DNA of 64,000 nt from Escherichia virus TH22. The position numbers and the translations under genes were made by a program. Of the stretch, positions 3,888 to 62,631 are shown piece by piece (positions within the stretch are counted from its first letter, which is position 1; the number at the start of each line of letters is the position of its first letter). The stretch lies in the sequence record MT446396.1. One strand, given 5' to 3'. The notes under the pieces were generated by a model. That model ran no database searches and was not told the origin of the DNA. It saw only the letters and a program-made list of their open reading frames with translations.

Positions 3888-5948
3888 ATGTCTGAACAAT
3901 TAAATGAACTCTTTGACAAATATATCGAAGCCTTCGGTTATCCTGTCATTAATATGAATCCAAAATACAAGGTCCCACAGGTTTGGCAATTTGGTGTTCC
4001 TGGGACCAATTCTCTTATGGCTCGTTTGATGCAATTCACGGGCAAAGAAACAGTTAAACAATATAAACGCGGCGATGCAATTGCCGAGGTATTCCTGTTA
4101 TCCGGAACTTCACACGGTCATGCTGTTCCTCTGAAGGGTGGTTTAGGTGAAAAACCTCTTGATGCAATTAACTTGATTTTTACTACAGTCTGGGAAAGCA
4201 TTAAACTAGGCAAACCTGATGTAGTCTTGTTCCGTTTCCCATCCAAAAAGATGAAAGGACAAGACCAAGCTATTATTCGTATTATGAATCGACTGATTCA
4301 AATGAAAACCAGCGGACGTTATCATGTTCTTCCGAATGCTTCTGGCCTTGGTAAAAAGAACGCTTATGTAATTATGTACAAAAGGGGTGTTGACCTGCTT
4401 TCAGTCGATGGTATGCCACCAGTCCCTGAGAAATATAAAAAAGTCGAAACTAAAGTTGGTGATGTATTCACCAATAAAGATAATGGTGCACAAGTATCCA
4501 AACAAGAAATTGCAGCCGAGATTCTGATTGACGCAGCAAACAAAAAGACCGATGCTGCTGTTGCCCAGAAAACTAAAATCAGTCGCCGAGCTATTGCACA
4601 AGCCCAGTACGCTCCAAGTGATTCCGTGCCAGAAGGTTGGGACGAAATCGATGCAGAAGCTGCTAAGTTTAGTCGACCGGCTACGGCAGAACTTATCGAT
4701 GATTATGAAGAACTGGAAATTTTTGTTCGACCTTCCGAAACGAATACTATGGCTCGTATGCGCGCAGCAGATACGGCTATGCGAGCAAATGGTGTTTGGA
4801 AAGAAGAAATTCGTGTTGAAGACTCTGACCCAATTTTTAACCGTATGCATCGCGAACTTAAACGTGCTCCAGTTGGTAGTATGAAGCAGATGCAGATTTT
4901 TGCCGAATCATGCGCAGAGATTCTTAACCTTCGCAAAGCCGCATTTATCGAAAGAAAAATGAATGATGCTCCTCCTAATGTGGATGCAGCCACTTATGCA
5001 GCCTCGCTCTGGGAAAAAGAATACACAAGCGCCATTCGTGTTGCAGTTAAAGACTTTGCTGAAGAAGCATCAGAAAATACTCTTAATTTCACAGCAGGGT
5101 ATACTGACAACCGTTTCCATTATGGTCAGCGAGAAGCAATTGCAGATTATTGTGGAGCAAACTATGCCGATATTAATAATTATTTGATGGGCAAATATTA
5201 TGAAGAAGAAGCTGAATTCCTAAATCTAGACAGAGTTGTCGAAACAATTAAGGAATTGGATTCGGCCTTTGAAATTGGACATAAGTTGCCACCTAATACA
5301 ACTCTTTGGCGTGGTCAATATTTAAACGTTCCTACATTTGATAAAATTAAGAAATCTAAATTATTTTATTTCAGGAACTATGTATCAACGTCGTTTAAAC
5401 CGATTATCTTTGGTGGCTGGGTGGCGAACGTTGCTATGGCTGCAGTTCATCAGGACTATCGTGATGGGACATCTTTCCAGGCTGATGACGAAATTGTTTT
5501 ACCAGATATGCCGGAAGCACGCCGCGACCACGTAATGATGCATGTTGGTTGGAAAATTTCTGGGGCGGACTTAATTAACGTAATTGTTCCTGGGGAATTG
5601 TCAGGCAACCCATCCGAGCAGGAAGTTATTCTTCCTCGTGGGACTGTAGTTAAGATTACCAAAATTACTGATGCTTCGTATCAAGGAAACGCGAACGTCA
5701 AAATGCTGGAAGCTGATATCCAGACTACGGACCAACTGGATGAAAATGCAGTTATCTATGATGGTGATGTGTTGATGGAAACTGGTGAGCTTGTCGTTTA
5801 TCAGGGCGAGGAAACAGAAGAGCCAGTAGAATCTGTTGACTTTGCATCGTTTGCATCCTCTGGGGTAACGAAGAAAGTCAATCAAGGTCTTGGTATTCTT
5901 GCTAGTTGTATTAATTTGGAAGCTATTCCTCCTAAATTCCTTTCGTAA
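3888..5948 (+). CDS. alt: Alt-like ADP-ribosyltransferase (capsid-packaged, injected)
   Basis: 686 aa (T4 Alt about 682 aa); position between ligase and gene 54 as in T4; C-terminal R-S-E motifs (LWRGQ, YVSTSF, EQEVILPRG). Confidence 0.85.
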   Translation: MSEQLNELFDKYIEAFGYPVINMNPKYKVPQVWQFGVPGTNSLMARLMQFTGKETVKQYKRGDAIAEVFLLSGTSHGHAVPLKGGLGEKPLDAINLIFTTVWESIKLGKPDVVLFRFPSKKMKGQDQAIIRIMNRLIQMKTSGRYHVLPNASGLGKKNAYVIMYKRGVDLLSVDGMPPVPEKYKKVETKVGDVFTNKDNGAQVSKQEIAAEILIDAANKKTDAAVAQKTKISRRAIAQAQYAPSDSVPEGWDEIDAEAAKFSRPATAELIDDYEELEIFVRPSETNTMARMRAADTAMRANGVWKEEIRVEDSDPIFNRMHRELKRAPVGSMKQMQIFAESCAEILNLRKAAFIERKMNDAPPNVDAATYAASLWEKEYTSAIRVAVKDFAEEASENTLNFTAGYTDNRFHYGQREAIADYCGANYADINNYLMGKYYEEEAEFLNLDRVVETIKELDSAFEIGHKLPPNTTLWRGQYLNVPTFDKIKKSKLFYFRNYVSTSFKPIIFGGWVANVAMAAVHQDYRDGTSFQADDEIVLPDMPEARRDHVMMHVGWKISGADLINVIVPGELSGNPSEQEVILPRGTVVKITKITDASYQGNANVKMLEADIQTTDQLDENAVIYDGDVLMETGELVVYQGEETEEPVESVDFASFASSGVTKKVNQGLGILASCINLEAIPPKFLS

Positions 5949-6332: not shown

Positions 6333-7290
6333 ATAATATACGTTGACTTCCACCAGAGACTGTTCTCCCAGAACCAGTGAACGTATTGTATAGACTTGTT
6401 AATCCAGATTGGGCACCAGACAAGCGGCTCAATTTGGCAACTTCTGCGTTCAAGTTGTTATCTGAACTAATACCAGATACACCCTTAATAACCTTATCTT
6501 CTAACCATTCCAATGCAGCAGCTCTTCCCACCGCACCAGTTGACATAACGCGATAAGCAAAAGTCACATCAAATGTAGCTATCTGATTATCCCCTTCATA
6601 ACTCAATTCAGGCGCTGATACACTTACAGGAACACAACCAGTTAACATAACAACCGTATGCGGCAATCCATTACGTGAGTGAAGGTTAACCTGAATATCA
6701 GCTTCAACGTCTTCAGGCAAGGCCCTTAGCTGGGTAACCGGGTCTTGCACAGAGTTAACCCAATCGTTAAATGCTCTGTAGTTCCCTGCCTCTGAATCCA
6801 TTCTAAAGCTCAATACCAATGGAGAATATTCTCTTCCTGTTATCTTAATATTTGGTGCGTTATGGTTGAGGTCCATTTCGTAGTTCAACGTGTTATCCGG
6901 AAGCTTAACAGAGTGGACCAATAGACCAGCCGTTGGATATGCCATATTAAAGAAATCAAGCAGGTAAGTACCAACCTCAAATTCCCCCAATAATGATTGC
7001 ACAACACGGTTACTCATTGCCCCGATAAGATATTTGCTTATCCCTGATTTGCGAATAAGCTTTTGTGTCCCAGCAGTAACAAGAGTTGTTATCCCTTGAG
7101 TTAAGTCGCCTTGCGTTAAACCAAACCAATCTGAGTTAACAGGAAGGTTGCTGAATAATGCGCCACCAAACTGGTCCAGAAGATTCTGAGATTTGGAGGA
7201 AGGCGTGGTCGCGAAGACCACACTAAAAAGGTTATTCCTTTGTAAGTCGATATTAATCGCCTGCGTTTGGAATTCTTGTAAAGTAAACAT
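6331..7290 (-). CDS. 54: baseplate tail-tube initiator
   Basis: 319 aa (T4 gp54 about 320 aa); position and order 54-48-29 as in T4. Confidence 0.8.
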   Translation of the reverse strand: MFTLQEFQTQAINIDLQRNNLFSVVFATTPSSKSQNLLDQFGGALFSNLPVNSDWFGLTQGDLTQGITTLVTAGTQKLIRKSGISKYLIGAMSNRVVQSLLGEFEVGTYLLDFFNMAYPTAGLLVHSVKLPDNTLNYEMDLNHNAPNIKITGREYSPLVLSFRMDSEAGNYRAFNDWVNSVQDPVTQLRALPEDVEADIQVNLHSRNGLPHTVVMLTGCVPVSVSAPELSYEGDNQIATFDVTFAYRVMSTGAVGRAAALEWLEDKVIKGVSGISSDNNLNAEVAKLSRLSGAQSGLTSLYNTFTGSGRTVSGGSQRIL

Positions 7291-22661: not shown

Positions 22662-22708
22662 GTTTACAACCAGATTAAGATAAGACATAATGATTCCATA
22701 CTGAGTTA
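22662..22708 (+). promoter_or_regulatory. early promoter GTTTAC-18 nt-CATAAT followed by conserved leader GATTCCATACTGAGTTA
   Basis: Hexamers read directly; the same leader recurs at 60795, 61681 and 62209. Confidence 0.6.
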
Positions 22709-22733
22709 ACAAACAAAACCTTGGAGTTTAAAA

Positions 22734-23015
22734 ATGAACAAAGCAACTTTCCTTCTGAACACCTTTAAAAAATTGGAAATTGAAGTTATTACATTGGTCA
22801 ACAAATACCCAAATGGTGTTAATGGTAATGCTCTGAACAAACTAGTTAAAAAATATGAAAACTTAGCATATGACACTGATTTCTGGTGGAATGGTAATTA
22901 TTCTACTCACACTAAAGATAAAAATGGTAACTGGTTGAAACTTCAAGAAAACAATGTTAACTTCAGAGACCTCATCAAGCGCCGGGTAGAAGTTCATTTA
23001 AATGGTATGGTATGA
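22734..23015 (+). CDS. hypothetical early protein (93 aa) between genes 23 and 24, opposite strand
   Basis: ORF with own promoter, GGAG Shine-Dalgarno and downstream terminator; N/K/W-rich. Confidence 0.45.
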   Translation: MNKATFLLNTFKKLEIEVITLVNKYPNGVNGNALNKLVKKYENLAYDTDFWWNGNYSTHTKDKNGNWLKLQENNVNFRDLIKRRVEVHLNGMV

Positions 23016-55365: not shown

Positions 55366-56038
55366 AATTAATTGCGATTGTGGGTAAAAAACGCAGTGGT
55401 AAAGATACGACTGCTGATTATGTTATTAGTCAAAACGGAACAAAGTGGCAGCTTGCAGGTCCGATTAAAGAAGCGCTTTATAAAGCGTGGATTCGTCAAG
55501 ACCTGCCACACAATTTGACCCTGGAAAATTTTGATGGACAAGGTTATGACCGTGAAAAAACCTTGATAATGAACAACACCGAAGCTTATATTCTTCTGGT
55601 TGATGCTCTTGAATGGTTGAAACAACAATACAATCTTGACCTTCCGAATCCAGATATGGTTCGTAAAATCATTGAATTTCACACACTAAATAATGTTGAG
55701 CCCTGGACAGTTAGACGTTTCATGCAGACCCTTGGAACTGACATCGTTTGTACAGAGTTCGACAGCATGTTTTGGATTAAAACTTTTGCGTGCGATTATC
55801 TTGACAACCTCTATTCTGGATATAAATATTACGTTGTCCCAGATGTTCGTCAAAAGAACGAACTTGATTCGCTTCGGGCGATGGGTGCTACAATAATCTT
55901 TGTAGAGCGCGATGAAGCAAATCATTCTACTGATACACACATTACGGAAGCTGGACTTCCACCACTAGCTAGTGACATTGTTATTAAAAACGATGGCACA
56001 CTCGAAGAACTTTTTGATAAAATTAATAAGGTAATATA

Positions 56039-56039: not shown

Positions 56040-56729
<690 letters not shown>

Positions 56730-56730
<1 letters not shown>

Positions 56731-56759
56731 TGTACAAATGAGTGTAGGTGCAGTATTAT
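56730..56759 (+). promoter_or_regulatory. early promoter (ATGTAC-18 nt-TATTAT)
   Basis: Hexamers with 18-nt spacer upstream of ORF 56791. Confidence 0.5.
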
Positions 56760-56790
56760 GTTCCTACACCAACGAACAAACGGAGTTAAT

Positions 56791-57123
56791 ATGAACATCA
56801 AAACTTACAACGAGTTTTTAGCCGAATCCGCCATCAATGAGACCAAATCAATTGATGATAGTGAAGGCTCTCTGAAATTTGGTTTAACCAAAAATGCAGA
56901 TGGTGTTTTCTTTCAGATTGGTAATGAACGTTTTCAAACGTCCAAATATTCCAAAGCTGCAGTTGAAGCTGTCCTGAAATCTGGTGGCAAGTGGAAAGGC
57001 AAAGAAGGTACTAAAGAAATTGGTATCGCTGTTGACGGTGGTATGGCTTATTTTAAAATTGGCGATGAACAATTTATTATGTCTGCTCGCGGACGTAAAG
57101 AACTGGCAAAACTTTATAAATAA
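56791..57123 (+). CDS. internal-protein-like small protein with N-terminal capsid-targeting-like sequence (MNIKTYNEFLAE)
   Basis: 110 aa from ATG with GGAG Shine-Dalgarno; N-terminus resembles the T4 IP capsid-targeting sequence MKTYQEFIAE as recalled. Confidence 0.6.
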   Translation: MNIKTYNEFLAESAINETKSIDDSEGSLKFGLTKNADGVFFQIGNERFQTSKYSKAAVEAVLKSGGKWKGKEGTKEIGIAVDGGMAYFKIGDEQFIMSARGRKELAKLYK

Positions 57124-57131
57124 GGTTTCTT

Positions 57132-57404
57132 ATGAAAACTTTCAATGAATTTTTCAACGAGTCCCAACTGAATGAAGAAGTAAAAATTAGTAAAGCAGTC
57201 AAAGCTATGATTGACAATATCAATCACCTGTATAGCATTGACTTGACTGACCATATAACAATTGGTAACAAACGCAACTTTTTCGCGTTTGACATTTCAG
57301 AACTTGACCAGAACCAAATTAATAACATTGAGCGTTTTGCCAATGACAAGGGTCTCCGCCATGAGACAGCTGGTTATAAAAAATACGCAATTTATCTAAA
57401 ATAG
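57132..57404 (+). CDS. internal-protein-like small protein (MKTFNEFFNE)
   Basis: 90 aa; capsid-targeting-like N-terminus ending in Glu. Confidence 0.6.
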   Translation: MKTFNEFFNESQLNEEVKISKAVKAMIDNINHLYSIDLTDHITIGNKRNFFAFDISELDQNQINNIERFANDKGLRHETAGYKKYAIYLK

Positions 57405-57412
57405 GATTTCAA

Positions 57413-57712
57413 ATGCAAACGCTCCATGAATTTTTGGTAGAAAACAATTATCTGGCAGAAGCAAAAACCTGGCCTCTGGGCCTTCAGAAGAAAAACACCT
57501 ACAAATGGGTTGACTTCAAAGGTAAAGGCGACGCTGAAGACTTTGACCAGCTGTGTAAAAATGGTTATACCTTCCTTGACTCTAACTATAATAAAATTAC
57601 CTCATTTAGTCAGAAATCCAGCATTGCATATATTGAAACTGGTAAGAACACCCCTAAGAACATCACTGACGACTTCGCAGCTTATGGCGTGATTCGCGGT
57701 TCAAAAATGTAA
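57413..57712 (+). CDS. internal-protein-like small protein (MQTLHEFLVE)
   Basis: 99 aa; degenerate capsid-targeting-like N-terminus. Confidence 0.55.
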   Translation: MQTLHEFLVENNYLAEAKTWPLGLQKKNTYKWVDFKGKGDAEDFDQLCKNGYTFLDSNYNKITSFSQKSSIAYIETGKNTPKNITDDFAAYGVIRGSKM

Positions 57713-57748
57713 TGTACATGATGGGATAACTGCAGTATAATTATCCCA
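57712..57748 (+). promoter_or_regulatory. early promoter inside inverted repeat TGGGATAA...TTATCCCA (promoter stem-loop cassette)
   Basis: -35 ATGTAC, 18 nt, -10 TATAAT at 57736-57741; 8-bp inverted repeat brackets the -10. Confidence 0.6.
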
Positions 57749-57781
57749 TCAACTACTGGAGACAACATGAAAACTTATCAA
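57715..57781 (+). repeat. 67-bp perfect direct repeat, copy A (promoter + RBS + first 5 codons)
   Basis: Identical to 58013-58079. Confidence 0.85.
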
Positions 57782-58009
57782 ACATTTATAACAGAATCTT
57801 CCCATGGTATGGAAGTTAAACTTGGTCAAGCCCTTGCTGAAGCAGAGCGCCTGTTTGCACGTATCAAAGAACTTGCTGATTCTGTAGATGCATCATCTTT
57901 TAAAGGCGACCAGGGTAAAGTTAAAGCTCTCCTTGCTCTTTGTTCTGATGCAGGCGAAATTGCTAAGAATGGTACCAAGATGAAAAAACGCCTAGAAGAC
58001 TTAAAATAA
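57767..58009 (+). CDS. internal-protein-like small protein (MKTYQTFITE)
   Basis: 80 aa; capsid-targeting-like N-terminus. Confidence 0.65.
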   Translation: MKTYQTFITESSHGMEVKLGQALAEAERLFARIKELADSVDASSFKGDQGKVKALLALCSDAGEIAKNGTKMKKRLEDLK

Positions 58010-58048
58010 GTATACATGATGGGATAACTGCAGTATAATTATCCCATC
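58010..58048 (+). promoter_or_regulatory. early promoter inside inverted repeat TGGGATAA...TTATCCCA (promoter stem-loop cassette)
   Basis: -35 GTATAC, 18 nt, -10 TATAAT at 58034-58039. Confidence 0.6.
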
Positions 58049-58079
58049 AACTACTGGAGACAACATGAAAACTTATCAA
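58013..58079 (+). repeat. 67-bp perfect direct repeat, copy B
   Basis: Identical to 57715-57781. Confidence 0.85.
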
Positions 58080-58298
58080 GAATTTATTAATGAAACTGCT
58101 GATGTTAAAGTGCAATTCATTTACACCGGCAAGAAAGATAAAATGGGCGAAATGCCTTATGGAACTCTCCGCGACGCCTTAGATAATTACGGTCAGCTCG
58201 GCGGTGAAGAGTTTGGGGACTATTTTGTTATCCAGGGTCCGGCAGAAGTTATCGAGAAATGGGCTAACAAGTATAAATCAATTTTCCGTAAAAAATAA
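58065..58298 (+). CDS. internal-protein-like small protein (MKTYQEFINE)
   Basis: 77 aa; N-terminus nearly identical to the T4 capsid-targeting sequence MKTYQEFIAE as recalled. Confidence 0.65.
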   Translation: MKTYQEFINETADVKVQFIYTGKKDKMGEMPYGTLRDALDNYGQLGGEEFGDYFVIQGPAEVIEKWANKYKSIFRKK

Positions 58299-58340
58299 GT
58301 GTACTTTTAGATATGGGATAGTGTATAATTATCCCATCAA
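58299..58340 (+). promoter_or_regulatory. early promoter inside inverted repeat GGGATA...TATCCC (third cassette copy)
   Basis: -35 GTGTAC, -10 TATAAT at 58324-58329, then GAGGAG and ATG at 58358. Confidence 0.55.
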
Positions 58341-58357
58341 CTACTGAGGAGAATAAA

Positions 58358-58543
58358 ATGAAACGTTGCGAATTAATTAGAAATGTTACTGCCCTTGTTG
58401 CTGTTACCGCTTTTGGTTTTAGCATGTTTGCTGGCTTTATGTTGAATATGCTTTCAACTTCTGAGAATATAATCTCTTTAGTAGTTGCATTCTTAATTGG
58501 TTCAATCTCTTTCGTTATGGATAAAATCTCTAAAGGTGAATAA
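58358..58543 (+). CDS. small hydrophobic protein (61 aa, probably two transmembrane helices)
   Basis: Hydrophobic stretches VTALVAVTAFGFSMFAGFML and IISLVVAFLIGSISFV. Confidence 0.45.
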   Translation: MKRCELIRNVTALVAVTAFGFSMFAGFMLNMLSTSENIISLVVAFLIGSISFVMDKISKGE

Positions 58544-59575: not shown

Positions 59576-59595
59576 AACTTATTTTAAATTATCAT

Positions 59596-59700
59596 GGCGA
59601 TAGGTATTGTAGATGCGGTTCGATTCCGTCCGGGGTAAGTGCCCTAGCATGCTTGGAGCATGAGTGACTTAATATTGGTGGTTCGAGTCCACCCCGCTAT
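59596..59700 (+). ncRNA. tRNA-like / degenerate tRNA region with two T-arm-like motifs but no canonical cloverleaf
   Basis: GCGG-TTCGATT-CCGT and GGTGG-TTCGAGT-CCACC present; no matching 7-bp acceptor stem found by hand. Confidence 0.25.
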
Positions 59701-59709
59701 GAACAAACA

Positions 59710-60717: not shown

Positions 60718-60720
60718 TCA

Positions 60721-60746
60721 AACCCGCTCCGGCGGGTTTATTTTTA
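60721..60746 (+). terminator. rho-independent terminator (AACCCGC-UCCG-GCGGGUU + U-run)
   Basis: Hairpin plus TATTTTTA read directly. Confidence 0.8.
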
Positions 60747-60764
60747 ATATTTCTTCAAAAAGTA

Positions 60765-60812
60765 GTGTACATCCGAATTGACCGGGTGCATAATGATTCC
60801 ATACTGAGTTAC
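60765..60812 (+). promoter_or_regulatory. early promoter GTGTAC-18 nt-CATAAT with conserved leader GATTCCATACTGAGTTAC
   Basis: Same module as at 22662, 61651 and 62179. Confidence 0.6.
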
Positions 60813-60844
60813 ACACTGAATCACAAAAACTTTGGAGAAATAAA

Positions 60845-61270
60845 ATGAACTTTCTGACCCTGACCTCTGCATTTTCTGTTACCCGCATCACTAACAAAAT
60901 GGTTGCTGACGAAGTATGTGAAATCTGCATTCGTGAAGATGCACTTATCCATCTGACTTCAACCCAGATTGTTGCCATCGCTAAGTCCCTTAATTCTGAA
61001 CTGAAGGTAAACACCAAACAGTCAAAAGAATCCATCATTGAATTAATCCAAGCTGAAATGATTGAATTCCCAATTGAAGAAGTTAAAGAAGAAAAAATCC
61101 AGTCCAAATCTGGTAACGCCCGTGACATTTGCTTCCAGGCATTTGCAGAAATTGATATGAATGATAATGCAGCTCGCCGCGCTCTGATTGATGTTCTGGT
61201 TACCACCCATGATATCAAAAAGACTGTTGTTCAGTCATATGCTTCCAACTTCCGCAAAGCTCAAAAATAA
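60845..61270 (+). CDS. hypothetical early protein (141 aa), paralog of ORF 61723 in its C-terminal domain
   Basis: C-terminus NDNAARRALIDVLV...VVQSYASNFRK shared with ORF 61723. Confidence 0.5.
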   Translation: MNFLTLTSAFSVTRITNKMVADEVCEICIREDALIHLTSTQIVAIAKSLNSELKVNTKQSKESIIELIQAEMIEFPIEEVKEEKIQSKSGNARDICFQAFAEIDMNDNAARRALIDVLVTTHDIKKTVVQSYASNFRKAQK

Positions 61271-61282
61271 TTGAGAAAAGTG

Positions 61283-61316
61283 TTTTACTTCCAGGTGGGA
61301 TAGTGTATAATTATCC
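61283..61316 (+). promoter_or_regulatory. early promoter inside inverted repeat GGGATA...TATCCC
   Basis: -35 TTTTAC, -10 TATAAT at 61306-61311 flanked by GGGATA/TATCCC; leader variant CATACTGAGTTG. Confidence 0.5.
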
Positions 61317-61352
61317 CATACTGAGTTGCCAAATAAAACACTGGAGAATAAA

Positions 61353-61649
61353 ATGTTTAACGCACCTGCATGGCACGCTACCCAAGCTCAAGAAGAAAAC
61401 AAAGCAATCATTTCTGCTAAAATTGAAGCTCAACTGAATGAATTGTGCGAAACTGCTTCTGAAGAAGTTGTTGCAATCATCAAACAGTATCCTGCATCCA
61501 ACTATTCTCTGGCATGCATTAAAACAGAAATGGTTAACTTATGGCGCAAGAACAAGAAAACTTTCTTGGGTATGCAGTATCAAGCAATTGCATCTGCAGT
61601 AGTAAACATGTATGACTTTGAAGTTTATTTCCCAACTTCTGAAAATTAA
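61353..61649 (+). CDS. hypothetical early protein (98 aa)
   Basis: ATG with CTGGAG Shine-Dalgarno; the ORF-track start at 61326 lies inside the leader. Confidence 0.45.
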   Translation: MFNAPAWHATQAQEENKAIISAKIEAQLNELCETASEEVVAIIKQYPASNYSLACIKTEMVNLWRKNKKTFLGMQYQAIASAVVNMYDFEVYFPTSEN

Positions 61650-61650
61650 T

Positions 61651-61698
61651 GTGTACTTTGGAATTTGACTAAGGCATAATGATTCCATACTGAGTTAC
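61651..61698 (+). promoter_or_regulatory. early promoter GTGTAC-18 nt-CATAAT with conserved leader GATTCCATACTGAGTTAC
   Basis: Read directly; third copy of the module. Confidence 0.6.
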
Positions 61699-61722
61699 CA
61701 AATAAACAAACGGGATAATAAA

Positions 61723-62166
61723 ATGAAAACTTCAAAACTGGTTAAGTACGTTAAACTGGCATTAAACAACTCTTCTGAAGCTGAAGCACAATCCGCAGCA
61801 CGTATGTTCTTCAAACGTCTGACAGCTGAAGGTATTTCATTTAACCCGGCAGTATTTGGTATCACTCGTGGCGAAGCTGTTAAACTGGCAACTCTGGCAG
61901 GTAAAATTTTTAAAGGTCTGAATGATGGACAGGTTAAAGCAGAAGTTAAACCTACTCCTAAAGCTGAACCAAAAGCTGAGCGTAAGGCACCTAAACGCTC
62001 CGGTATGAGCAACAAAGATTTATGCTATGATATGTTCAAAACTGTTAATATGTCTAATGGTGCCGCTCGTAGGGCTGTTATTGATATGATTGTGCGTGAG
62101 TTTGGATTCAACAAAGCATCAGTTCAGTCTTATGCTTCCAACTTCCGCAAAGAATTTGAAATTTAA
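61723..62166 (+). CDS. hypothetical early protein (147 aa), paralog of ORF 60845 in its C-terminal domain
   Basis: C-terminus SNGAARRAVIDMIV...SVQSYASNFRK. Confidence 0.5.
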   Translation: MKTSKLVKYVKLALNNSSEAEAQSAARMFFKRLTAEGISFNPAVFGITRGEAVKLATLAGKIFKGLNDGQVKAEVKPTPKAEPKAERKAPKRSGMSNKDLCYDMFKTVNMSNGAARRAVIDMIVREFGFNKASVQSYASNFRKEFEI

Positions 62167-62174
62167 TTCAAAAA

Positions 62175-62226
62175 GGGGGTATACAAGCCCCCTGCTTTAA
62201 GGCATAATGATTCCATACTGAGTTAC
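62175..62226 (+). promoter_or_regulatory. terminator-like hairpin (GGGGGU...AGCCCCC) overlapping an early promoter GTATAC-18 nt-CATAAT plus conserved leader
   Basis: The -35 hexamer lies in the hairpin loop; leader GATTCCATACTGAGTTAC at 62209-62226. Confidence 0.5.
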
Positions 62227-62249
62227 ACAATAAAACACTGGAGAATAAA

Positions 62250-62555
62250 ATGAAATTCATCATCAACCTGGCGCTTGTTGACTTTGATAAAACTGGTAAT
62301 TTCGCATCTGCTGAAAATATGATTCGTAACACCAAGTTTAAAGTGCAAGTTCAACAGGCGGTAGCAAAAGAGTTCTTTACTGATAAATTAACTAACGTTG
62401 TTAATCACCTGAATGTGCAAGTTAAATTTACTCGTGAAGCAGAAACTACTGTTGCATTTGATTTTGACTGCCAATACCATGATGAATATGTTCGCCGTAT
62501 CCTGGATATTGTGTCTGATGAACTTTACTATGGTGTGCAGGAAAATAAAATCTAA
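62250..62555 (+). CDS. hypothetical early protein (101 aa)
   Basis: CTGGAG Shine-Dalgarno and ATG. Confidence 0.45.
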   Translation: MKFIINLALVDFDKTGNFASAENMIRNTKFKVQVQQAVAKEFFTDKLTNVVNHLNVQVKFTREAETTVAFDFDCQYHDEYVRRILDIVSDELYYGVQENKI

Positions 62556-62559
62556 ATCA

Positions 62560-62595
62560 GTGTACACTTTAATGGGAACATGATAGTATGTTCCC
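62560..62595 (+). promoter_or_regulatory. early promoter (GTGTAC-18 nt-TAGTAT) with -10 bracketed by inverted repeat GGGAACA...TGTTCCC
   Basis: Read directly; a different inverted-repeat sequence but the same stem-loop architecture. Confidence 0.5.
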
Positions 62596-62631
62596 TGGAT
62601 AATAAAACATTAACCAACTGAAGGAAATACC

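Follow-up and report, generated by a model that had tools for sequence, protein, structure and literature searches.

The 64-kb stretch of DNA analysed here (hereafter, the window) belongs to a VR7/SP18-like T4-type phage of the genus Gaprivervirus. Its ipI locus is bordered by 57B on one side and by tRNA.4, the conserved right border, on the other, and between them lie five small genes which we identify as internal-protein (IP) genes. The locus is arranged as follows:

56791-57123, plus strand: 110-aa IP-like gene with leader MNIKTYNEFLAE; phrog_3966, E = 6e-34; invariant in 20/20 loci
57132-57404, plus strand: ip9, 90 aa, leader MKTFNEFFNE; phrog_7673 'internal head protein', E = 2e-56; named ip9 in VR7
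57413-57712, plus strand: 99-aa internal head protein, leader MQTLHEFLVE; phrog_2667; no cassette upstream
57767-58009, plus strand: ip5-like cargo gene, 80 aa, leader MKTYQTFITE; phrog_3499 'internal head protein', E = 2e-41; named ip5 in VR26 and ECML-359
58065-58298, plus strand: ip6-like cargo gene, 77 aa, leader MKTYQEFINE; phrog_8111 'internal virion protein', E = 2e-51; named ip6 in VR7
58358-58543, plus strand: tRNA.4, a predicted membrane protein of 61 aa; phrog_1692; Trna.4 in relatives

Four of the five IP-locus genes matched PHROG families whose annotation reads internal head or internal virion protein, and the IP-gene names ip9, ip5 and ip6 are found in the annotation of relatives; no Pfam family was matched by the 10 small proteins queried. 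The ip9 gene starts 8 nt past the 110-aa gene, with no cassette between them, and the sole late-promoter motif of the locus (TATAAATA, 57115-57122) is located upstream of ip9. As a separate observation, the annotation of one relative gives the neighbour gene 57B as the anti-CBASS protein Acb1.

Six spacers of the window, each directly 5' of a gene start, display one shared architecture of ~55-70 bp, consisting of an AT-rich stretch (TCAAAAATGTAA, CTTAAAATAAG), a -35 hexamer (T[G/A/T]TAC[A/T]), a 16-18 bp spacer, a -10 hexamer placed within a hairpin, a GGAG and an ATG. The hairpin of the IP-type cassettes extends from ~-30 to +3, encloses the -10 and has no U-tract. The six cassettes, numbered 0 to 5, are:

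56731-56790, plus strand: cassette 0, upstream of the first IP gene; -35 TGTACA 56731-56736, -10 TATTAT 56754-56759 in the loop, GGAG 56782-56785; arms GTGTAGG 56742-56748 and CCTACAC 56763-56769; kept in 19/19 Gaprivervirus relatives
57713-57766, plus strand: cassette 1; -35 TGTACA 57713-57718, -10 TATAAT 57736-57741, GGAG 57758-57761, ATG 57767; arms TGATGGGATAA 57719-57729 and TTATCCCATCA 57741-57751, 11-nt loop
58011-58064, plus strand: cassette 2, the layout of cassette 1 shifted by +298 and identical over 58013-58079; -35 TATACA 58011-58016, -10 58034-58039, GGAG 58056-58059; arms 58017-58027 and 58039-58049
58300-58357, plus strand: cassette 3, upstream of tRNA.4; -35 TGTACT 58300-58305, 18-bp spacer, -10 TATAAT 58324-58329, leader GGAGAATAAAATG; arms ATGGGATA 58313-58320 and TATCCCAT 58330-58337
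61284-61352, plus strand: cassette 4, a chimera with an IP-type 5' half (TGGGATA 61296-61302, TATAAT 61306-61311, TATCCCA 61312-61318) and, as its 3' half, the second-family leader ATACTGAGTTGCCAAATAAAACACTGGAGAATAAAATG (repeat families D1 and D2)
62561-62631, plus strand: cassette 5; -35 TGTACA 62561-62566, -10 TAGTAT 62584-62589; arms GGGAACAT 62574-62581 and ATGTTCCC 62588-62595, different from those of the other cassettes

The first-pass annotation had reported the same module in three spacers flanking internal-protein-like genes, together with related copies of different arms at two further positions. The common architecture and the IP identity of the genes were borne out; the third copy, however, has shorter arms, an 18-bp spacer and CAACTACTGAGGAG in place of CAACTACTGGAG, and it precedes tRNA.4, which is not an IP gene. 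Similarly, the arms do differ in the copy at 62561-62631, but the one at 61284-61352 retains the common TGGGATA/TATCCCA core and has 24 identical nt in common with the third copy. Overlooked at that stage were the sixth copy (56731-56790, arms GTGTAGG/CCTACAC) and a second cassette family at 60766, 61652, 62180 and 22662. The cargo behind the IP cassettes carries a capsid-targeting N-terminal leader (MKTYQTFITE, MKTYQEFINE, MNIKTYNEFLAE), which is missing behind cassettes 3-5, these preceding non-IP genes. An Rfam search gave no match at the cassettes, and only two tRNAs reached the gathering score of a family.

Regarding transcription, the hexamer pairs TGTACA-17-TATAAT, TATACA-17-TATAAT, TGTACT-18-TATAAT and TGTACA-17-TATTAT were found in the cassettes, their T4 homologues being TTTACA-17-TACTAT. 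These hexamers fit the PST/T4 PeSL promoter consensus TTTACW-N17-TAYWAT (PMC4122927), except that five of the six have G or A as the second base of their -35 and that the third base of the -10 is G in cassette 5; from this consensus match we infer that the cassettes are early promoters. A generic promoter scan returned 41 sites against 29.1 +/- 6.2 expected, which alone is not significant, and a literature search yielded no usable transcription-start dataset for the homologous T4 promoters. Two other candidate motifs were rejected, namely an extended -10 (TGn), which is absent from the cassettes, and a DnaA box in TTATCCCAT, which has three mismatches to TTATNCACA (by eye). Each unit would comprise a sigma-70/T4-early-type promoter, with its -10 in the hairpin loop and 3' arm, and a short leader with a GGAG Shine-Dalgarno (SD), followed before the IP genes by the first codons of the capsid-targeting leader; it would thereby provide immediate-early transcription of the small gene downstream. 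Transcripts from the own promoter are predicted to start at ~57748 or ~58046 and, since these starts fall inside the 3' arm, would lack the hairpin, which is expected to fold solely in transcripts reading through from upstream and would there most likely constitute an RNA 3'-end barrier or attenuator.

Cassettes 1 and 2 share the sequence TACATGATGGGATAACTGCAGTATAATTATCCCATCAACTACTGGAGACAACATGAAAACTTATCAA (57715-57781 and 58013-58079), identical at 67/67 nt and running from the promoter past codon 5 (MKTYQ) of the ip5-like and ip6-like genes, exactly as first described. It is the longest exact direct repeat of the window; the next-longest measure 24-28 nt and belong nearly all to the second promoter-cassette family. 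The bodies of both genes are unrelated, as blastp aligns the 12-aa leader only and their nucleotide identity in a gapped global alignment is 52%, and tandem duplication of one gene was rejected as the source of the repeat because of this lack of relatedness. Only 3/20 loci have a perfect repeat of 67-73 nt, each over a different segment, which argues for independent homogenisation events; the perfect 67-bp identity would be the trace of a recent crossover or gene conversion between the two cassettes. One could propose that the cassettes serve regulation only, their likeness arising from a shared need for promoter, ribosome-binding site and leader and their cargo changing by unrelated illegitimate events. 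Functional constraint does account for the conserved -35, -10, GGAG and MKTYQEF codons, but the 67-bp identity also takes in non-consensus spacer and loop positions as well as synonymous sites.

Comparison with relatives bears on the same question. GenBank phage records were used as the comparison set because the IMG/VR and metagenome collections added little: pattern scans of IMG/VR retrieved three true IP-type and five tRNA.4-type copies, the remaining matches of a first, shorter pattern being rejected as chance and unrelated, and the metagenome scan retrieved two true copies. In GenBank, roughly 870 T-even records matched a tRNA.4-tRNA.3 probe. The alignment across relatives, suggested in the first-pass annotation, revealed that the cargo between conserved cassettes varies, with 11 gene arrangements in the cassette-flanked slots of 20 loci (the window and 19 Gaprivervirus relatives), and with the four possible combinations of the 92-aa gene or ip5 with ip6-77 or ip6-84 all occurring (4/4); the invariant part across the 20 loci is the cassette-free pair formed by the 110-aa gene and ip9. 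Homology to the window is lost at 57798 and regained at 58003 in VR7, at 58111 and 58285 in EAWsc9, and at 57798 and 58290 in SP18, so breakpoints fall at cassettes in 3/3 pairwise comparisons. Furthermore, VR25 corresponds to the window less one 298-bp repeat unit (ungapped, 97.7% over 703 nt), and T2 ip-b and RB15 ip7 combine the 5' arm of one cassette type with the 3' arm of another, as expected from a crossover in the shared loop.

The second cassette family and a module associated with it gave a further case:

60720-60844, plus strand: second-family cassette in true PeSL order, with a terminator hairpin (60720-60739) and T-run, then -35 60766-60771, -10 CATAAT 60789-60794, the conserved leader GATTCCATACTGAGTTAC and GGAG
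61652-61722, 62180-62249 and 22662-22733, plus strand: other members of the family
61356-61675, plus strand: 320-bp module of a 98-aa ORF and one cassette, shared with VR7 but lacking in SP18

Direct cassette repeats (61307-61355 and 61676-61724) bound this module; both segments map to positions 6477-6526 of SP18 (L003), and the SP18 cassette at the missing-module site is an exact hybrid of the window cassettes at 61284 and 61652. The 11 arrangements, the cassette breakpoints, the VR25 deletion form and the SP18 hybrid support the original interpretation, in which the repeats offer homology for swapping gene bodies while the leader is kept. By comparison, and at the level of sequence, the cassettes are thus shown to act as recombination homology. 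Cassette-coincident breakpoints, exact hybrids, a precise one-unit deletion and an invariant part that is the cassette-free one are difficult to reconcile with a purely regulatory role, which we consider quite unlikely, although microhomologies of 2-10 bp can suffice for recombination in T4 (PMC9391042) and some rearrangements sit at junctions without a cassette. The latter is the case of VR26, UPEC07, RZ and MN01, where the 99-aa gene is missing or has ip5 in its stead, ip5 lying directly after ip9; because of such junctions, cassettes are not the sole route of rearrangement. Given that the unit is directly repeated on either side of each cargo gene, the cassette would provide portable homology for the general homologous recombination of the phage, whose homology requirement in T4 is <50 bp (PMC2839356), and crossovers within it would delete, insert or exchange cargo, leaving promoter, ribosome-binding site and targeting leader intact.

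The hairpin itself is conserved in a distinct manner, as arm sequences vary among cassettes and phage genera, being fully unlike even within one genome (GTGTAGG, TGATGGGATAA, GGGAACAT), while complementarity is kept. Its predicted folding as RNA surpasses that of shuffled sequence (z = -2.45 and -3.18); as DNA, z = -3.86 was obtained for copy 1 (0/200 shuffles as stable) and z = -3.83 for cassette 5, and cassette fold z-scores span from -1.6 to -3.9. In alignment A3, whose sequences were selected for being in register, 97% of the cells were paired compared to 28-59% in slid controls, GC<->AU compensatory changes were found in 3/9 pairs, and the covariation score was reached by 0/500 shuffles; the formal pair count was limited to this in-register set because MAFFT misregistered cassettes with 11-nt loops against those with 9-10-nt loops. 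The five one-sided changes in A3 were all G·U (5/5) and none A·C, and our own tally counted ~8-9 variant types with G·U and 2-3 with A·C, which are few and not independent events. These nearly exclusive G·U intermediates are a small added hint at a function of the conserved hairpin in sense-strand RNA.

An inverted repeat centred on the -10 and spacer region could also be a DNA operator, at which a dimeric phage or host protein would switch the promoters off or on, and the mechanism by which T4 early promoters are shut off is incompletely understood (PMC3014915). Nevertheless, the arms are wholly unlike between cassettes of the same genome and between genera, and one-sided changes to G·U, although neutral in RNA, are not so in a palindrome of duplex DNA, making an operator extremely improbable; because arms differ while compensatory changes keep them complementary, selection appears to act on structure and not on a recognition sequence. 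Alternatively, the hairpins could be intrinsic terminators insulating the genes, as shown for the stem-loops of RB49 PeSLs, and would overlap the promoter incidentally. Termination by PeSL stem-loops was demonstrated in reporter assays (PMC2839356), the hairpin begins 7 nt past the preceding stop codon, and EAWsc9 and ECML-359 have at the same place a terminator-like, loop-less derivative (GGGGATAATTATCCCC followed by TTTTT). Such a role is doubtful here, since the stems are not followed by a U-tract (CAACUACUGG) and a terminator scan did not call the IP-type hairpins; in addition, with the only late-promoter motif of the locus upstream of ip9, the head proteins encoded downstream could be supplied late only by read-through. 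We therefore regard a terminator function as unlikely.

A promoter inside a hairpin that upstream transcripts fold and own transcripts, devoid of the 5' arm, do not, follows the same logic as T4 e, soc, 49 and I-TevI (PMC3014915), and translational control of that type would imply that read-through RNA hides the ribosome-binding site and that internal-promoter RNA alone is translated. In those T4 genes, however, the promoters are late and the hairpin sequesters SD and AUG, whereas the cassettes have an early-type promoter and their GGAG (57758-57761) and AUG (57767) are unpaired and outside the stem in the predicted folds; SD sequestration was rejected on this ground, and we judge translational control of this kind highly improbable.

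Our preferred reading, which we hold to be very probable, is that the elements are the 'early promoter with stem-loop' cassettes of the IP locus of T-even-type phages, serving both transcription and recombination. In the IP-locus elements known since 1994, the stem-loop is reportedly AT-rich, variable in sequence and interposed in the promoter, after the -35 and around the -10; the window hairpins likewise follow the -35, lie around the -10 and vary in sequence. According to later papers (PMC2839356, PMC4122927), these promoter/stem-loop elements were described by Repoila et al. (1994, EMBO J 13:4181), hence the cassettes are already published and the observation is a correct rediscovery. Both sets share the locus (57B to tRNA.4), the families ip5, ip6 and ip9, a ~60-70 bp unit flanking the cargo on either side, a T4-type early promoter, an AT-rich variable stem-loop and a conserved ~11-aa leader, and in both, relatives differ in which ORFs are flanked, in how many and in what order. 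One of the deposited 1994 loci, the RB15 record EMBL Z35082 of that era, holds ip5, ip9, ip7 and ip8 between 57B and tRNA.4. The same architecture with other arms was found in the flanks of T4 ipI and trna.4, and in T2, RB15, OE5505, SG1, PhiZZ30, JS98 and one Mosigvirus. Cassette 3 is orthologous to the element upstream of T4 trna.4, from which it differs in the arms but not in the leader; T4 and the window have an identical tRNA.4 leader, CAACTACTGAGGAGAATAAAATG. The differences to T4 lie in the arms (TGATGGGATAA/TTATCCCATCA in the window, TGATGAGGTA/TACCTCATCA or ATAGGGT/ACCCTAT in T4), the -35 (T[G/A]TACA versus TTTACA) and the -10 (TATAAT versus TACTAT). On these sequence comparisons, the window cassettes are a Gaprivervirus variant of the 1994 elements.

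The resemblance to PeSLs initially proposed holds in part. As with the PeSLs of RB49/phi1, PST/T4 and nt-1/KVP40 (PMC2839356, PMC4122927), the cassettes are intergenic, repeated and located in hyperplastic regions, combine promoter, stem-loop, SD and start codon, flank small accessory genes, and are found at indel or replacement breakpoints of close relatives, with crossovers within the element. In contrast, the PeSL stem-loop is upstream of the -35, often rich in G-runs and C-runs and with terminator activity, whereas the window hairpin is located 3' of the -35, up to ~+3, with the -10 inside it; the strict order, in which the stem-loop comes before the promoter, is displayed only at 60720-60794 and not by the IP-type cassettes. 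Consistently, the IP-locus elements are termed PeSL-like analogues in Arbiol 2010 (PMC2839356) and Comeau 2014 (PMC4122927), the authors naming them analogues and not homologues of PeSLs (PMC2839356).

Internal proteins enter the host along with the phage DNA, and at least some counteract host defences, IPI being directed against GmrSD and IPIII being required on E. coli ECOR17 (PMC9391042). Reshuffling of such anti-defence genes by cassettes between co-infecting phages would help to explain quick host-range change, and is relevant to the choice or engineering of therapeutic T4-like phages. The value of the present case is confirmatory, as a clean and well-sampled Gaprivervirus example with precise deletion and hybrid products in nature.

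A last comparison concerns integron attC cassettes, which also form arrays of small adaptive genes and have imperfect hairpins conserved in structure but not in sequence; circular intermediates, proposed for PeSLs, are a further likeness. Unlike integrons, the window system lacks an integrase and each cassette has its own promoter. That folded single-strand hairpins are recognised by a structure-specific phage enzyme (e.g., an endonuclease VII-type resolvase), making the locus an integron-like array with circular ORF-plus-cassette intermediates such as a 298-bp ip5 circle, seems very unlikely to us; homologous rather than structure-specific recombination is favoured because crossovers in stretches of identity can yield non-complementary arms. 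In a milder version, the hairpin and the downstream GGAG may constitute an RNA processing module, in which RegB cleavage leaves the upstream cistron with a protective 3' hairpin.

The window derives from a T4-type Gaprivervirus phage, and the closest matches to a 1.9-kb query were VR7, VR20, VR25, EAWsc9 and SP18 (94-97% identity), none of which covered the full query. Genes on the + strand run in the order gp3, gp1, 57A, 57B, five small genes, tRNA.4, tRNA.3 and the tRNA genes. All five small genes between 57B and tRNA.4, the internal protein (IP) locus, begin with the kind of N-terminal leader that T4 internal proteins typically have; four match PHROG families whose annotation is internal head or virion protein, and the names used in relatives are ip9, ip5 and ip6. 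The border gene 57B (56275-56730) is annotated in EAWsc9 as the anti-CBASS protein Acb1, and thus the swappable IP genes adjoin another counter-defence gene.

Six spacers share one plan, namely a -35 hexamer (T[G/A/T]TAC[A/T]), the 5' arm of a hairpin placed inside the 16-18 bp -35/-10 spacer, a -10 hexamer (TATAAT, TATTAT or TAGTAT) that lies in the loop and reaches the 3' arm, and then a short leader, a Shine-Dalgarno sequence (AAGGAA at 62561, GGAG in the other five) and ATG:

Cassettes of the window, by -35 start, with hairpin arms (5' / 3')
56731: GTGTAGG / CCTACAC
57713: TGATGGGATAA / TTATCCCATCA
58011: TGATGGGATAA / TTATCCCATCA
58300: ATGGGATA / TATCCCAT
61284: TGGGATA / TATCCCA
62561: GGGAACAT / ATGTTCCC

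The first-pass annotation had recognised this module in three spacers (57713, 58011, 58300); these indeed share the plan, and so do three further cassettes, that at 56731 having been missed. Its placement around internal-protein-like genes holds for the ip5 and ip6 cargo, but the gene behind the third copy, tRNA.4, does not encode an internal protein; the different arms it assigned to two downstream copies are found at 62561, while 61284 has the same arm core. With these minor corrections the observation is confirmed, and its interpretation is supported by the comparisons below.

The hairpin begins 7 nt past the stop codon of the preceding gene, leaves GGAG and AUG unpaired, is followed by no U-tract and was not called by a terminator scan. 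Transcription from the promoter within the cassette would start about 7 nt after the -10, inside the 3' arm, and its RNA would therefore lack the hairpin, which could fold solely in read-through RNA or in single-stranded DNA. A T4 late-promoter motif (TATAAATA, 57115-57122), the only one in the IP locus, precedes the ip9 start by 9 nt, with others at 55821 and 60129; as ip5 and ip6, which the cassettes would drive, lack late motifs themselves, both head proteins could be expressed late only by transcripts that read through the hairpins.

The same plan with other arms flanks T4 ipI and trna.4 (TGATGAGGTA/TACCTCATCA and ATAGGGT/ACCCTAT), the T4 trna.4 leader being identical to that of the window's tRNA.4, and more arm variants were found in T2, RB15, OE5505, SG1, PhiZZ30, JS98 and one Mosigvirus. 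In an in-register alignment of 11 cassettes, 97% of cells were paired (28-59% in slid controls), 3 of the 9 stem pairs displayed compensatory changes (GC<->AU), the covariation score was reached by none of 500 shuffles, and all five one-sided stem changes were G·U. Judged from this alignment, selection acts on the structure of the hairpin. By our own + strand count over all collected cassettes, about 8-9 G·U variant types stand against 2-3 A·C types, which is suggestive, although not statistically firm, of a role in the single-stranded sense form, RNA being the simplest case. The inverted repeat was also considered as a sequence-specific operator; the wide variation of the arms inside a single genome argues against this reading.

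The claimed 67-bp identity holds without a mismatch: 57715-57781 and 58013-58079 agree from the -35 region through hairpin, -10, GGAG and ATG to codon 5, past which the genes themselves are unrelated. No longer exact direct repeat occurs in the 64-kb window. Perfect 67-73-nt repeats occur in just 3 of 20 loci, in a different segment each time, hence the identity in the window reflects recent homogenisation.

Pairwise homology to relatives breaks, and then resumes, at cassettes:

Homology breaks between the window and relatives
VR7: ends 57798, resumes 58003; slot 4 (place of ip5) differs
EAWsc9: ends 58111, resumes 58285; slot 5 (place of ip6) differs
SP18: ends 57798, resumes 58290; one gene in place of two

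The locus alignment proposed earlier for cargo variation, covering the window and 19 Gaprivervirus relatives, revealed 11 arrangements. A 110-aa gene plus ip9, with no cassette between them, is invariant in the 20 loci; the slots flanked by cassettes carry between one and three genes, drawn from ip5, a 92-aa gene, ip6-77, ip6-84 and a 73-aa gene. Either member of {92-aa gene, ip5} occurs with either member of {ip6-77, ip6-84}; all four pairings exist, and this requires exchange between the two slots. With one 298-bp repeat unit taken out, the window gives a gap-free alignment with VR25 (97.7% over 703 nt). In the next variable region, 61356-61675 (a 98-aa ORF and one cassette) is missing from SP18, whose single cassette is an exact hybrid, corresponding to the 61284 cassette in its 5' part and to the 61652 cassette in its 3' part. 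Breakpoints, deletion form and hybrid all support the proposal that the repeats offer homology for swapping gene bodies, and argue that the cassettes mark recombination joints. T2 ip-b and RB15 ip7 join the 5' arm of one cassette type to the 3' arm of another, the product that would be expected from crossover in the shared loop. Cassette-free rearrangements also exist, ip5 directly following ip9 in four relatives. We consider it very improbable that recombination here is structure-specific and integron-like, or that the cassettes act as RegB-coupled modules of RNA processing.

The cassettes are an already described system in a genus-level sequence variant, and thus a correct rediscovery. The IP-locus elements of Repoila et al. 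(1994) build on T4 early promoters and have stem-loops that are weaker, AT-rich and variable in size, according to the passages describing them in Arbiol et al. (2010; PMC2839356) and Comeau et al. (2014; PMC4122927); one of the loci of that period (EMBL Z35082) holds RB15 ip5, ip9, ip7 and ip8 between 57B and tRNA.4. Every testable feature of the 1994 type of element was found in the window, the promoter as a sequence match. The likeness to promoter-early stem-loop (PeSL) cassettes stands as regards position, at cargo-change joints; strict PeSL, however, have the stem-loop upstream of the promoter, and the IP-type cassettes do not. That strict order is present in a separate element at 60720-60794.

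Separate promoter cassettes form a second family. The hairpin AGGGGGTATACAAGCCCCCT (62170-62195) encloses the -35 (TATACA) of the putative 62180 promoter; it shares the G-run/C-run stem of RB49-type PeSL stem-loops and overlaps the -35, not the -10. A fifth member (22662-22736; GTTTAC ... CATAATGATTCCATACTGAGTTA ... GGAG ... ATG), some 38 kb off, would drive a lone + strand 93-aa ORF (22734-23015) that has a - strand ORF on either side (426 and 519 aa). ORFs of 141 aa (60845-61270; phrog_9997) and 147 aa (61723-62166; phrog_18416), both in families of unknown function, follow two cassettes and are paralogues with a common C-terminal domain (...VQSYASNFRK) and a 31-nt stretch 97% identical (61229-61259 versus 62122-62152).

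The strong RegB cleavage consensus is GGAGRAYARAA (PMC3014915). The leaders GGAGAATAAAATG of tRNA.4, the 98-aa ORF and a 101-aa ORF (58348-58360, 61343-61355, 62240-62252) match it at 11 of 11 positions; the IP-gene leaders GGAGACAACATG match only GGAG, from which IP mRNAs may escape rapid RegB inactivation. EAWsc9 (4018-4062 of its sequence) and ECML-359 carry GGGGATAATTATCCCC then TTTTT before ip5, instead of the promoter cassette; this looks like the same arms after loss of the loop and -10, a promoter-less, terminator-like remnant. Finally, the 134-nt gap between tRNA-Met and tRNA-Arg (59576-59709) contains two T-arm-like motifs (GGTTCGATTCC, GGTTCGAGTCC) and, when ARAGORN thresholds are relaxed, yields a tRNA-like call of 95 nt whose anticodon has 4 nt (ctag); in SP18 this place is taken by tRNA-Asn, and the gap could hold a decayed or unusual tRNA.
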